Virus record (IMG/VR): IMGVR_UViG_2541047949_000001
Strand: one strand, 5' to 3'
DNA from: a virus
Taxonomy: Duplodnaviria > Heunggongvirae > Uroviricota > Caudoviricetes
DNA: 44,194 nucleotides
Both the position numbers and the translations under genes were made by a program. Positions within the stretch are counted from its first letter, which is position 1. Each line of letters starts with the position of its first letter. Under the pieces are notes generated by a model that saw nothing but the letters and a program-made list of their open reading frames with translations, was not told the DNA's origin and searched no databases. Positions 5,492 through 21,918 of the stretch are shown here, one piece after another.

Positions 5492-5527
5492 TGAAGTGGT
5501 TTACTGAATTTGGCCACCTGAACAGAG

Positions 5528-5866
5528 GTGATATGCTCACCTCAGAACAACACAGGTGCCATAATGAAAAAAAGAAATTTCAGCGCAGAGTTTAAACGCG
5601 AATCCGCTCAACTGGTCGTTGACCAGAATTACACCGTGGCAGATGCAGCCAGCGCTATGGATGTCGGCCTTTCCACAATGACGCGATGGGTGAAACAATT
5701 ACGTGATGAGCGGCAGGGAAAAACACCAAAAGCCTCCCCTATTACCCCGGAACAAATTGAAATCCGTGAGCTCAGGAAAAAGCTACAACGTATTGAAATG
5801 GAAAATGAAATATTAAAAAAGGCTACCGCGCTCTTGATGTCAGACTCCCTGAACAGTTCTCGATAA
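5528..5866 (+). CDS. IS911-like transposase OrfA (HTH)
   Basis: 112-aa [24 protein letters not shown]...; A-AAA-AAG slippery heptamer at 5815..5821 near its 3' end for the -1 frameshift into orfB. Confidence 0.9.
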
Positions 5867-5892
5867 TCGGGAAACTCAGGGCGCGTTATCCT

Positions 5893-6711
5893 GTGGCCAC
5901 TCTCTGCCATGTGTTCGGGGTCCATCGCAGCAGCTACAAATACTGGAAAAACCGTCCTGAAAAGCCAGACGGCAGACGGGCTGTATTACGCAGCCAGGTA
6001 CTTGAACTGCATGGCATCAGCCACGGCTCTGCCGGAGCAAGAAGCATCGCCACAATGGCAACCCAGAGAGGCTACCAGATGGGGCGCTGGCTTGCTGGCA
6101 GACTCATGAAAGAGCTGGGGCTGGTCAGCTGTCAGCAGCCGACTTACCGGTATAAACGTGGTGGTCATGAACATGTTGCTATCCCTAACTACCTTGAACG
6201 GCAGTTCGCCGTGACCGAGCCAAATCAGGTGTGGTGCGGTGATGTGACCTATATCTGGACGGGTAAGCGCTGGGCGTACCTCGCCGTTGTTCTCGACCTG
6301 TTCGCAAGAAAACCAGTGGGCTGGGCCATGTCGTTCTCGCCGGACAGCAGGCTTACCATGAAAGCACTGGAAATGGCATGGGAAACCCGTGGTAAGCCCG
6401 TCGGGGTGATGTTCCACAGCGATCAAGGCAGTCATTATACGAGCAGGCAGTTCCGGCAGTTACTGTGGAGATACCGGATCAGGCAGAGTATGAGTCGGCG
6501 TGGAAACTGCTGGGATAACAGCCCAATGGAGCGCTTCTTCAGGAGTCTGAAGAACGAATGGGTGCCGGCGACGGGCTATGTAAGCTTCAGCGATGCAGCT
6601 CACGCAATAACGGACTATATCGTTGGATATTACAGCGCACTAAGACCGCACGAATATAATGGTGGGTTACCACCAAACGAATCGGAAAATCGATACTGGA
6701 AAAAACTCTAA
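5893..6711 (+). CDS. IS911-like transposase OrfB (DDE catalytic domain)
   Basis: 272-aa ORF in -1 frame relative to orfA; IS3-family integrase-core-like sequence. Confidence 0.9.
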
Positions 6712-6741
6712 CTCGGTGGCCAGTTTTTGTTGACCACTTCA

Positions 6742-6819
6742 CATTACGTCATGGTCAATTTCAATTTCTATTGATGCTTTCCAGTCGTAATCAATGATGT
6801 ATTTTTTGATGTTTGACAT
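6742..6819 (-). pseudogene. ea10: ea10, N-terminal 26 codons, separated from its 3' part by the IS insertion
   Basis: Reverse strand reads SD(GAGGA)-ATG TCA AAC...GTA ATG then runs into the IS end (TGA); joining with 5198..5491 across the duplicated ATG reconstructs a 122-aa ORF. Confidence 0.6.
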
Positions 6820-6836
6820 CTATTCATATCCTCATA

Positions 6837-6864
6837 GATAAAAAATCGCCCTCACACTGGAGGG
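6837..6864 (-). terminator. Rho-independent terminator candidate
   Basis: Minus-strand hairpin GCCCTC-cagtgt-GAGGGC followed by a T-run (plus-strand ATAAAAAAT). Confidence 0.5.
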
Positions 6865-7001
6865 CAAAGAAGATTTCCAATAATCAGAACAAGTCGGCTC
6901 CTGTTTAGTTACGAGCGACATTGCTCCGTGTATTCACTCGTTGGAATGAATACACAGTGCAGTGTTTATTCTGTTATTTATGCCAAAAATAAAGGCCACT
7001 A

Positions 7002-7202
7002 TCAGGCAGCTTTGTTGTTCTGTTTACCAAGTTCTCTGGCAATCATTGCCGTCGTTCGTATTGCCCATTTATCGACATATTTCCCATCTTCCATTACAGG
7101 AAACATTTCTTCAGGCTTAACCATGCATTCCGATTGCAGCTTGCATCCATTGCATCGTTTGAATTGTCCACACCATTGATTTGTATCAATAGTCGTAGTC
7201 AT
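7002..7202 (-). CDS. ral: Ral (restriction alleviation)
   Basis: 66-aa ORF MTTTIDTNQWCGQFKRCNGCKLQSECMVKPEEMFPVMEDGKYVDKWAIRTTAMIARELGKQNNKAA, lambda Ral-like. Confidence 0.8.
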   Translation of the reverse strand: MTTTIDTNQWCGQFKRCNGCKLQSECMVKPEEMFPVMEDGKYVDKWAIRTTAMIARELGKQNNKAA

Positions 7203-19170: not shown

Positions 19171-19201
19171 AGCTGCCCATATCGATGGGCAACTCATGCA
19201 A

Positions 19202-19495
19202 TTATTGTGAGCAATACACACGCGCTTCCAGCGGAGTATAAATGCCTAAAGTAATAAAACCGAGCAATCCATTTACGAATGTTTGCTGGGTTTCTGTTTT
19301 AACAACATTTTCTGCACCACCACAAATTTTTGCTGCATCGACAGTTTTCTTCTGCCCAATTCCCGAAACGAAGAAATGATGGGTGATGGTTTCCTTTGGT
19401 GTTACTGCTGTAGGTTTGTTTCCAACAGTAAACGTCTGTTGAGCACATCCTGTAATAAGCATTGCCAGAGCGGCAGAAAACAACATTTTTTTCAT
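19202..19495 (-). CDS. bor: Bor lipoprotein (serum-resistance)
   Basis: 97 aa from MKKMLFSAALAMLITGC...; lambda Bor-like. Confidence 0.85.
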   Translation of the reverse strand: MKKMLFSAALAMLITGCAQQTFTVGNKPTAVTPKETITHHFFVSGIGQKKTVDAAKICGGAENVVKTETQQTFVNGLLGFITLGIYTPLEARVYCSQ

Positions 19496-19975
19496 CTTAT
19501 TATCCTGCATTGTTAAAAACGGCAGAATCCTATGTGACAACAATTAAACGATAGTTAAATGGATTGATGAAAATTAAAACTACACAGGTGGGCTCAGACT
19601 ATTGGAGGAAGTTGGGGACACTCAGAATCCTGTGGAATGAAATAAACCGGTCTATCCGTCCATTACCCTTTTAGCTGCGCTGTATCGTCGCCGTATTCCC
19701 GCATTAACCATGACCGTAGCCCGACGGGGAATTCCTTCTGCGTGAGTGTGCGGGAATAATTAAAAACGATGCACACCGGGTTTTTACCGCGTTAATGATT
19801 CGCGGGTTTATCCCGGTGCGATGGTGGAAGAAACAGGAAGCTGTATTACAGAAAGTGCTACTACTGTATCCCGATGCGATGTATGTAATGTGAGTCAGAT
19901 AATGGCACAGGATGTGGTGATGTGGCAGTCTGGAACACAGGATATATTGTCAGAATAAGACCCGTAGGAATAAAA

Positions 19976-20302
19976 ATGAAAAGACGCCTTTTACTACTTT
20001 TTCTGTTATCTGTCCTGGCAGTGGGATGCTCGCAGCAAAAAGCTGATGAGCCCCGGCAATTAGTGACGGTGTATCCACGATATCCGGAATATGCTGCAGC
20101 AAATTATATCAAGGGGCTGGTTGAGGTTAAGTTCGATATTGGTGCTGATGGGACTGTGACACGGATCGTTTTTCTCCGCTCAGAGCCTCATAATTTGTTT
20201 CGTGATGAAGTGGTGAAGGCCATGGCGAAATGGCGATTTGAAAAGAATCGCCCCTGTCAGGGAGTGAAGAGACAATTTATCTTTACGCCGTCACGTCCTT
20301 GA
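19976..20302 (+). CDS. Lipoprotein with TonB C-terminal-like domain
   Basis: Signal plus lipobox MKRRLLLLFLLSVLAVGC; body YPRYPEYAAANYIKGLVEVKFDIGADGTV...AMAKWRF fits the TonB_C fold pattern. Confidence 0.6.
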   Translation: MKRRLLLLFLLSVLAVGCSQQKADEPRQLVTVYPRYPEYAAANYIKGLVEVKFDIGADGTVTRIVFLRSEPHNLFRDEVVKAMAKWRFEKNRPCQGVKRQFIFTPSRP

Positions 20303-20408
20303 TGCTTCCAGGTAGAGAGGGGCTGGAAGCAGGAGAAAAATGAAAGAGCCAGCGGTTATATTTTTGTCATGGTGAAGTGGTTTACTGAATTTGGCCACCT
20401 GAACAGAG

Positions 20409-20747
20409 GTGATATGCTCACCTCAGAACAACACAGGTGCCATAATGAAAAAAAGAAATTTCAGCGCAGAGTTTAAACGCGAATCCGCTCAACTGGTCGT
20501 TGACCAGAATTACACCGTGGCAGATGCAGCCAGCGCTATGGATGTCGGCCTTTCCACAATGACGCGATGGGTGAAACAATTACGTGATGAGCGGCAGGGA
20601 AAAACACCAAAAGCCTCCCCTATTACCCCGGAACAAATTGAAATCCGTGAGCTCAGGAAAAAGCTACAACGTATTGAAATGGAAAATGAAATATTAAAAA
20701 AGGCTACCGCGCTCTTGATGTCAGACTCCCTGAACAGTTCTCGATAA
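20409..20747 (+). CDS. IS911-like transposase OrfA
   Basis: Identical to 5528..5866; slippery heptamer at 20696..20702. Confidence 0.9.
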
Positions 20748-20773
20748 TCGGGAAACTCAGGGCGCGTTATCCT

Positions 20774-21592
20774 GTGGCCACTCTCTGCCATGTGTTCGGG
20801 GTCCATCGCAGCAGCTACAAATACTGGAAAAACCGTCCTGAAAAGCCAGACGGCAGACGGGCTGTATTACGCAGCCAGGTACTTGAACTGCATGGCATCA
20901 GCCACGGCTCTGCCGGAGCAAGAAGCATCGCCACAATGGCAACCCAGAGAGGCTACCAGATGGGGCGCTGGCTTGCTGGCAGACTCATGAAAGAGCTGGG
21001 GCTGGTCAGCTGTCAGCAGCCGACTTACCGGTATAAACGTGGTGGTCATGAACATGTTGCTATCCCTAACTACCTTGAACGGCAGTTCGCCGTGACCGAG
21101 CCAAATCAGGTGTGGTGCGGTGATGTGACCTATATCTGGACGGGTAAGCGCTGGGCGTACCTCGCCGTTGTTCTCGACCTGTTCGCAAGAAAACCAGTGG
21201 GCTGGGCCATGTCGTTCTCGCCGGACAGCAGGCTTACCATGAAAGCACTGGAAATGGCATGGGAAACCCGTGGTAAGCCCGTCGGGGTGATGTTCCACAG
21301 CGATCAAGGCAGTCATTATACGAGCAGGCAGTTCCGGCAGTTACTGTGGAGATACCGGATCAGGCAGAGTATGAGTCGGCGTGGAAACTGCTGGGATAAC
21401 AGCCCAATGGAGCGCTTCTTCAGGAGTCTGAAGAACGAATGGGTGCCGGCGACGGGCTATGTAAGCTTCAGCGATGCAGCTCACGCAATAACGGACTATA
21501 TCGTTGGATATTACAGCGCACTAAGACCGCACGAATATAATGGTGGGTTACCACCAAACGAATCGGAAAATCGATACTGGAAAAAACTCTAA
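20774..21592 (+). CDS. IS911-like transposase OrfB
   Basis: Identical to 5893..6711. Confidence 0.9.
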
Positions 21593-21918
21593 CTCGGTGG
21601 CCAGTTTTTGTTGACCACTTCATGGCTGACGAGGAATGATGGAAGAAGGCGTTGTATGCCACACAACGCCTCACTGTTCATTTCTTCTTTTTCTCTGGTG
21701 GAACCCGATGAATAAGAGTTGCACTGGTTTCCGATGAGATGGCGATATACTCGGGCAAAGTATGCTGGCAGTTTTCCAACTGGTCAAAAATACCTGCTCT
21801 CGTCTGTTGCAATGCCTGCAGCATGCGGCGGCAATGCGCCTTGCTTTTACTAACCATCTTTCCTTCCTCTATCAGTCGCTGCGTGAACTCATCATGGAAT
21901 ACCAGGTAAATGCGGATG

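Follow-up and report, generated by a model that had tools for sequence, protein, structure and literature searches.

Two separately inserted, directly repeated copies of ISEc52 in a lambdoid prophage of Escherichia coli

The DNA analysed here, IMG/VR record IMGVR_UViG_2541047949_000001 at its full length of 44,194 nucleotides (the window), belongs to a cos-type lambdoid prophage adjoining icd in a B2-type (extraintestinal) Escherichia coli. The prophage contains two intact 1250-bp copies of the IS3-family, IS911-like insertion sequence (IS) ISEc52, copy A at 5492-6741 and copy B at 20373-21622, both on the plus strand, which together form a 1.25-kb direct repeat on either side of a 13,631-bp segment (6742-20372) extending from the first 25 codons of ea10 through a gene for a TonB_C lipoprotein. 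We are confident that the pair arose by two separate copy-out-paste-in insertions of ISEc52 into one prophage, copy B having been acquired first, and that the resulting direct repeat could recombine with deletion of 14,881 bp. The gene content of the prophage was taken from the Prokaryotic Genome Annotation Pipeline (PGAP) annotation of the corresponding prophage in SF-088, a blood isolate, and transferred by alignment; the open reading frames (ORFs) of the window agree with it. The SF-088 prophage is 100% identical to window positions 1-5492 and 99.96% identical to positions 6742-42622, with 14 mismatches, none of them in the IS. The annotation and the window together provide the full set of features by which a lambdoid prophage is recognised: int/xis, N, cIII, kil, gam, bet, exo, cI/cro/cII, O with its iterons, P, Q, S/R/Rz, cosN, and lambda-type head and tail genes.

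Pairwise alignment of 5492-6741 with 20373-21622 shows that the two copies are equal at 1250 of 1250 positions on the same strand, with their starts separated by 14,881 bp, and the first-pass annotation was correct in describing them as identical and directly oriented. An exact repeat of this length is far beyond expectation and chance cannot account for it; no other repeat of at least 40 nt is present within the whole window. All of the features examined for assignment to the IS3 family are found, namely the length and inverted repeats, a 3-bp target duplication, two ORFs fused at an A6G motif, and helix-turn-helix and DDE domains. The terminal inverted repeats are imperfect, the ends being TGAAGTGG...CCACTTCA, with 5'-TG at the start and CA-3' at the end, and they agree at 9 of the first 9 and about 23 of the first 36 terminal positions. 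In copy A, orfA (5564-5866) encodes 100 aa and the frame of orfB extends to 6711. The slippery heptamer A AAA AAG at 5815-5821 (IS position 324) fits the X XXY YYZ pattern when read in the orfA frame, and a programmed -1 frameshift at this heptamer is predicted to produce the 382-aa fusion OrfAB. A DD(35)E motif can be read from the OrfAB sequence, which scores 380.6 bits against the NCBIfam IS3 family transposase profile NF033516 (cutoff 160) and also matches Pfam families PF00665 (rve, 109 bits) and PF01527 (HTH_Tnp_1, 54.5 bits).

Copies of the element that are 100% identical in other E. coli strains carry the PGAP label 'IS3-like element ISEc52 family transposase', and ISEc52 matches are present in 4,886 of the 5,426 complete E. 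coli genomes that made up the genome search set used throughout. The window element has the 1250-bp length, 3-bp duplication, orfA/orfB arrangement with A6G frameshift and DDE transposase of ISEc52, with no detectable difference. The annotated IS911 of Shigella phage Sf6 (NC_005344.1) shares its length and organisation but differs by about 5% in nucleotide sequence (94.9% identity over the full length), and the window element is named as a separate IS; identity is 94.6% to the IS911 copy of SfII, and 98.5% and 95.6% to the two IS911A remnants of K-12. The ISfinder convention places the isoform threshold at about 95% nucleotide identity to the IS911 reference, and by this rule membership of the window element in IS911 sensu stricto is borderline, given the range of 94.6-98.5% across the Sf6, SfII and K-12 copies. 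The left inverted repeat of IS911 presumably also differs from that of the window element at positions 9-11. The earlier designation as IS911-like is right at the family level, with ISEc52 the more precise name. IS911 transposes by a copy-out-paste-in mechanism through a circle intermediate, and ISEc52 is presumed by analogy to do the same. A 2026 preprint describes an ISEc52 insertion in gnd that is polymorphic among laboratory populations of E. coli Nissle 1917, and the element is therefore mobile in this phylogroup.

The sequences flanking copy A are ...TGTCAT|IS|CATTACG... and those flanking copy B are ...GTCATGG|IS|TGGCTGA..., with the triplet CAT at 5489-5491 and 6742-6744, and the triplet TGG at 20370-20372 and 21623-21625. 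Empty sites were sought using 1200-nt queries in which 600 nt of left flank, including one triplet, was joined to 600 nt of right flank. Both are recovered as single-piece 1200-nt matches at 100% identity, containing a single CAT or a single TGG, in many complete E. coli genomes of phylogroup B2, including CFT073, ATCC 25922, DSM 30083, Nissle 1917, APEC O1 and S88; for empty site B, matches extend over 80% or more of the query in 1,218 genomes, with 1,205 records at 99% identity or higher. A check for CAT or TGG being doubled already in uninterrupted homologues found no such case. Because the empty sites with a single triplet match at 100%, CAT and TGG are genuine 3-bp target duplications, and the proposal that each copy has a duplication of its own is borne out by the uninterrupted homologues. 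The two empty sites of DSM 30083 are 13,628 bp apart, which corresponds to the window spacing less the IS copies and duplications, and since the same spacing is found in this IS-free genome, the DNA between the copies is native prophage backbone. Both target sites contain TGTCAT, either just to the left of the duplication or overlapping it (TCTGTCAT| and TTTGTCATGG|), possibly by chance; no clear consensus emerges from the seven other catalogued ISEc52 insertion sites.

The order of the two events is indicated by genomes that have only one of them. SF-088 and the avian isolate PE144 both have an IS at site B that is 100% identical to the window element and flanked by the TGG duplication, and both have an intact ea10 of 369 bp, which is the empty form of site A. 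Given these B-only intermediates, the insertions were sequential with B first, and the most parsimonious history proceeds from an IS-free prophage through insertion at B to insertion at A; the independence of the insertions, put forward on the basis of the duplications, is supported in the same way by the empty sites and by SF-088 and PE144. The right junction of copy B is also found in the metagenome contig OIEV01000883.1. Outside of the window, the site A insertion is found only in draft assembly GCA_000461595.1, whose scaffold KE702513.1 is 100% identical to window positions 1-15491 and probably comes from the source strain or a clone-mate of it. The first insertion lies in a non-essential stretch between the lysis and moron genes and cos, and the later one in the non-essential ea10 gene of the pL operon.

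Look-ups of junction-associated sequences add modestly to these records. The 97-aa ea10 fragment is not a specific marker of site A, as gene callers often take an internal ATG in intact phages; its look-up recovered GCA_000461595.1, an insertion 26 bp from site A in Logan assembly SRR33931816, and an IS629-like deletion that is described below. When site B of GCA_000461595.1 was approached through a look-up of the TonB_C protein, only empty-site contexts were present among those listed. No record was found for a 68-aa ORF that is specific to the B junction. Neither the exact left junction of A nor the exact right junction of B was found in the IMG/VR viral contig collection, and in the Joint Genome Institute (JGI) metagenomes the left junction of A was not found and the right junction of B was found once.

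To the left of site A, the minus strand encodes int, xis, exo, bet, gam, kil, cIII and ea10 (DUF2528). The bracketed segment contains the genes previously ascribed to it, with one additional gene, that for the TonB_C lipoprotein, following bor/iss. From left to right these are ral (7002-7202, minus strand), sieB (7416-7997, plus strand), an N-like gene (8014-8286, minus strand), a pair of minus-strand genes at 8723-10029, cI (10069-10764, minus strand), cro (10840-11055), cII (11197-11493), O (11526-12425) and P (12422-13123), followed by ren, ninB, dam, ninE, ninX, rusA and ylcG between P and Q (15757-16140), a porin gene of OmpC/NmpC type (16329-17411, minus strand), S (18000-18215), R (18215-18712), Rz (18709-19170), iss/bor (19202-19495, minus strand) and the TonB_C lipoprotein gene (19976-20302, plus strand). 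Four lambda-type ori iterons are situated inside gene O (11874-11960, plus strand), and the bracketed segment therefore holds a complete ori-O-P module. The cosN site, GGGCGGCGACCT (22319-22330, plus strand), is 697 bp to the right of copy B, and cos is therefore uninterrupted by the IS.

Several neighbouring features can be noted. The gene pair at 8723-10029 occupies the rexAB position between N and cI, encodes a 250-aa DUF1828 protein and a 185-aa protein, and matches the PADLOC candidate defence system PDC-M24 (E = 4.7e-10 for the DUF1828 protein against PDC-M24B and E = 4.8e-4 for the 185-aa protein against PDC-M24A). The TonB_C lipoprotein gene and a 117-aa ORF (21678-22031, minus strand), whose product has a signal-peptide-like start, make up a module that lies between bor/iss and cos and is common to many otherwise different lambdoid prophages, and the TonB_C protein is listed in 51,003 assembly-collection blocks. 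PADLOC gives no match for either product, and the 117-aa ORF has no Pfam match. Beyond the right end of the window are the sitABCD genes for an iron/manganese transporter, located in SF-088 (locus L024, 7542-10991) between the tail-fibre region and the icd' remnant. Of the 14 differences from SF-088 in 35.9 kb, eight fall within 35 bp of the large terminase gene (23932-23966) and another three within a stretch of 8 bp immediately to the left of cosN (22301-22308), and these clusters look like short patches of recombination or gene conversion rather than point mutation.

Copy A splits the 122-codon ea10 after codon 25, as the first-pass annotation recognised in reporting that the gene is interrupted. 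Codons 1-25 are at 6745-6819 on the minus strand, as mapped from SF-088 and by reading of the sequence, and codons 26-122 are at 5198-5491, also on the minus strand, retaining a match to PF10800 (DUF2528); the ATG of codon 26 is provided by the duplicated CAT and is followed directly by a TGA from the end of the IS. At site B, the reconstructed empty site contains an ORF of 40 codons with its start at 20340; in the window this ORF has 11 codons (20340-20372, plus strand) and ends at the TGA opening copy B. The earlier reading of this truncation is correct, but that the ORF is a gene finds no support: it is without PGAP annotation in SF-088 and PE144, has no gene call in ten other loci and no Pfam match, and its region is identical in 13 of 13 loci, which leaves no variation to show coding constraint.

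In lambda ea10 is dispensable, and the region from bor to cos is non-essential except for sequences next to cosN. Both insertions are in operons transcribed under N or Q antitermination, and strong polarity would not be expected. Terminators and promoters predicted in the IS and in empty site B were no more numerous than chance would give. In SF-088, which has one IS, 48,676 bp separate icd from the icd' fragment, from which the att-to-att length with two IS copies is estimated as about 49.9 kb. The packaging limit of lambda is roughly 51 kb, and a defect through packaging overflow was rejected, the estimated length being within this limit. The insertions by themselves do not render the prophage defective, and it may still be functional.

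Recombination between the two copies, mediated by RecA or Red, would remove 14,881 bp comprising one IS and all genes from ral through the TonB_C gene, including N, cI, cro, O with ori, P, Q and the lysis genes. A single IS would stay, with CAT to its left and TGG to its right, in a remnant of about 35 kb that would be non-inducible but in which int/xis, the Red and structural genes and, outside the window, sitABCD would survive. The first-pass annotation had predicted such a homologous deletion from ral to bor, and the prediction stands insofar as it follows established recombination biology and relatives have ISEc52 copies that lack a duplication and are next to missing DNA; the specific junction was not recovered, a 3,250-nt model consisting of 1 kb of flank A, the IS and 1 kb of flank B being matched at 80% query coverage or more in 0 of 5,426 complete genomes.

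The relatives contain both simple insertions and insertions associated with losses. Simple insertions of ISEc52, given in window coordinates with their duplications, are present in ATCC 25922 at about 2685 (CAT) and at 7382-7384 (ATT, a second copy), in SRR33931816 at 26 bp from site A (CTA), in strain 100181 at 6945-6947 (AAT), in AVS0343 at 19110-19112 (GAT) and in EC15 at 20093-20095 (GCT). Copies without a duplication are found in THO-006, where window positions 7124-7771 are missing; in JCM 5491, where 7385-7877 are missing; in FDAARGOS_1255, where 7732-9865 are missing, which removes N, the last part of sieB and most of the DUF1828 (PDC-M24-like) pair; and in 23-AB02114, in which ea10 flanks the IS on the left, at 27 bp from site A, and on the right a foreign YbgA fragment precedes S, R and Rz. 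Mismatched flanking triplets are the signature left by recombination between direct copies, and these cases are consistent with it without being proof.

Some of these relatives merit individual description. The second copy in ATCC 25922 (locus L029, 7209-8461) is a 99.6%-identical IS in the opposite orientation that leaves sieB intact. At the same left junction, JCM 5491 (locus L027, 4141-5390) carries a forward-oriented ISEc52 that is 100% identical, and 493 bp of sieB are gone; we take JCM 5491 and ATCC 25922 to be two culture-collection versions of one strain. In ea10, three independent insertions of ISEc52 in one orientation occur within 27 bp (codons 17-26), at site A (CAT), at A+26 (CTA, SRR33931816) and at A+27 (23-AB02114), the latter insertions having IS coordinates 8725-9974 and 4027-5276 in their own loci (L010 and L012). 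The gene may be a local hot spot for ISEc52, with the qualification that the searches were seeded on ea10 and ascertainment is thus biased. In GCA_900447905.1 (UARX01000015.1; locus L004, 8551-9855) an IS629-like element of about 1.3 kb replaces window positions 6891-19373 without flanking duplication. Its ends (TGAACCGCCCCGGG...) match those of IS629/IS1203, and nearly the same immunity, replication and lysis block is lost as in the predicted deletion between copies A and B, by way of a different IS.

The organisation of the pair invites the alternative, raised in the first-pass annotation, that the two copies act as a composite transposon carrying nmpC, bor and the candidate defence operon, with the IS-13.6 kb-IS block arriving or moving as one unit. 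The outer ends (the left inverted repeat of copy A and the right inverted repeat of copy B) are correctly oriented for this and both transposase genes are intact, and IS-flanked copy-out-paste-in composites exist, such as the IS2-like 210-kb element of Burkholderia thailandensis (PMC6350997). We nonetheless consider this extremely unlikely. The cargo is native collinear prophage backbone with the 13,628-bp spacing that is also seen in IS-free genomes, each IS has a separate duplication, the outer flanks differ (CAT versus TGG), B-only intermediates exist in SF-088 and PE144, and the unit is seen in no other context among the 5,426 complete genomes; neither a single duplication around the whole unit nor a second location or foreign cargo was found. 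A one-step composite transposition is excluded by the separate duplications, the empty sites and the B-only intermediates. Separate insertion also has to be set against the possibility that one or both copies are artefacts of assembly, in which a repeat was misplaced or filled in within a short-read draft. The only other record of site A is a draft scaffold, KE702513.1 of GCA_000461595.1, and the exact insertion at site A is found in 0 of 5,426 complete genomes, but all four junctions are present with perfect 3-bp duplications, site B is independently represented in two complete genomes and one metagenome contig, and independent ISEc52 insertions 26-27 bp from site A in other samples make ea10 a plausible target, such that an artefact appears very unlikely. 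A third possibility is that the segment is a translocatable unit, excised through recombination or by the transposase as a 14.9-kb circle consisting of one IS and the genes from ral to TonB_C, persisting in the manner of lambda-dv and re-entering at other ISEc52 copies. The segment does hold the lambda-dv plasmid content (cI, cro, cII, P, and O with its four iterons), circles made up of one IS and the DNA between two copies are known from an IS3-family pair (PMC6350997), and related genomes offer many ISEc52 places, with 14 in SF-088 and 12 in PE144. Neither a circle nor a tandem junction was observed, however, and cI and, so far as could be seen, the operators remain wild type in the segment. 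In a lambda-dv the repressor would block pR-driven replication, and we regard this purely inferential scenario as highly improbable; if it were true, the excised unit, which also holds the porin gene, iss/bor, the TonB_C gene and the PDC-M24-like pair, would move serum-resistance and candidate defence genes independently of the phage.

Several observations do weigh against two separate insertions with a deletion potential between them. The site A insertion is known solely from the window and a single draft assembly, and repeated IS interiors can be filled from a consensus by the assembler, which makes the junctions of copy A more reliable than the exact identity of its interior. The junction of the predicted deletion is absent from the complete genomes and is not among the 10 contexts listed for the ea10 fragment, and the duplication-less single ISs in the four relatives could have arisen through other IS-mediated routes.

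The phenomenon itself is ordinary and already known, the two-copy prophage being a pre-deletion intermediate of prophage erosion. Three states of this erosion are represented among sequenced genomes: an IS-free ancestor, which is widespread, a form with one IS (SF-088 and PE144) and the form with two in the window. The two-IS state is primed to lose every host-lethal function while sitABCD and the structural genes stay. For annotation, the IS copies are not to be taken as transposon boundaries, nor is the prophage to be scored as defective from the IS copies alone, because both sites (ea10 and the stretch between bor and cos) are dispensable in lambda. Knowledge of IS3-family elements and of lambdoid phages is unchanged by the ISEc52 pair.

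The pair has precedents in several known systems. In B. thailandensis an IS2-like pair forms a circle of one IS together with 210 kb of intervening DNA (PMC6350997), and direct IS3-family repeats bracketing cargo are common to that megacircle and the window; the window pair differs in that it arose by two insertions into resident DNA and that no circle, multicopy state or relocation was observed for it. IS-driven decay, in which insertions and deletions disable modules, has long been described in lambdoid prophages, for example those of E. coli O157 Sakai (PMC2669165), and ISEc52 or the IS629-like element is similarly found at deletion junctions in this prophage family, whereas the window insertions are in non-essential positions with no deletion yet. 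Phages Sf6 and SfII carry IS911. Two copies are found in the P22-like Salmonella phage SEN22 (NC_028696.2), which is of another phage type and host, with the copies (16753-18002 and 39378-40627) 22.6 kb apart in a 41.3-kb genome and one of them in the ant region rather than in ea10; the SEN22 record annotates the two mobile elements on opposite strands, against the direct orientation given by BLAST. As in the window, both SEN22 copies are full-length elements of 1250 bp, each 99.84% identical to the window IS and in direct orientation, each has its own 3-bp duplication (ATT and CTC), and the copy outside the ant region lies, like copy B, between the Rz/lysis genes and the terminase genes.

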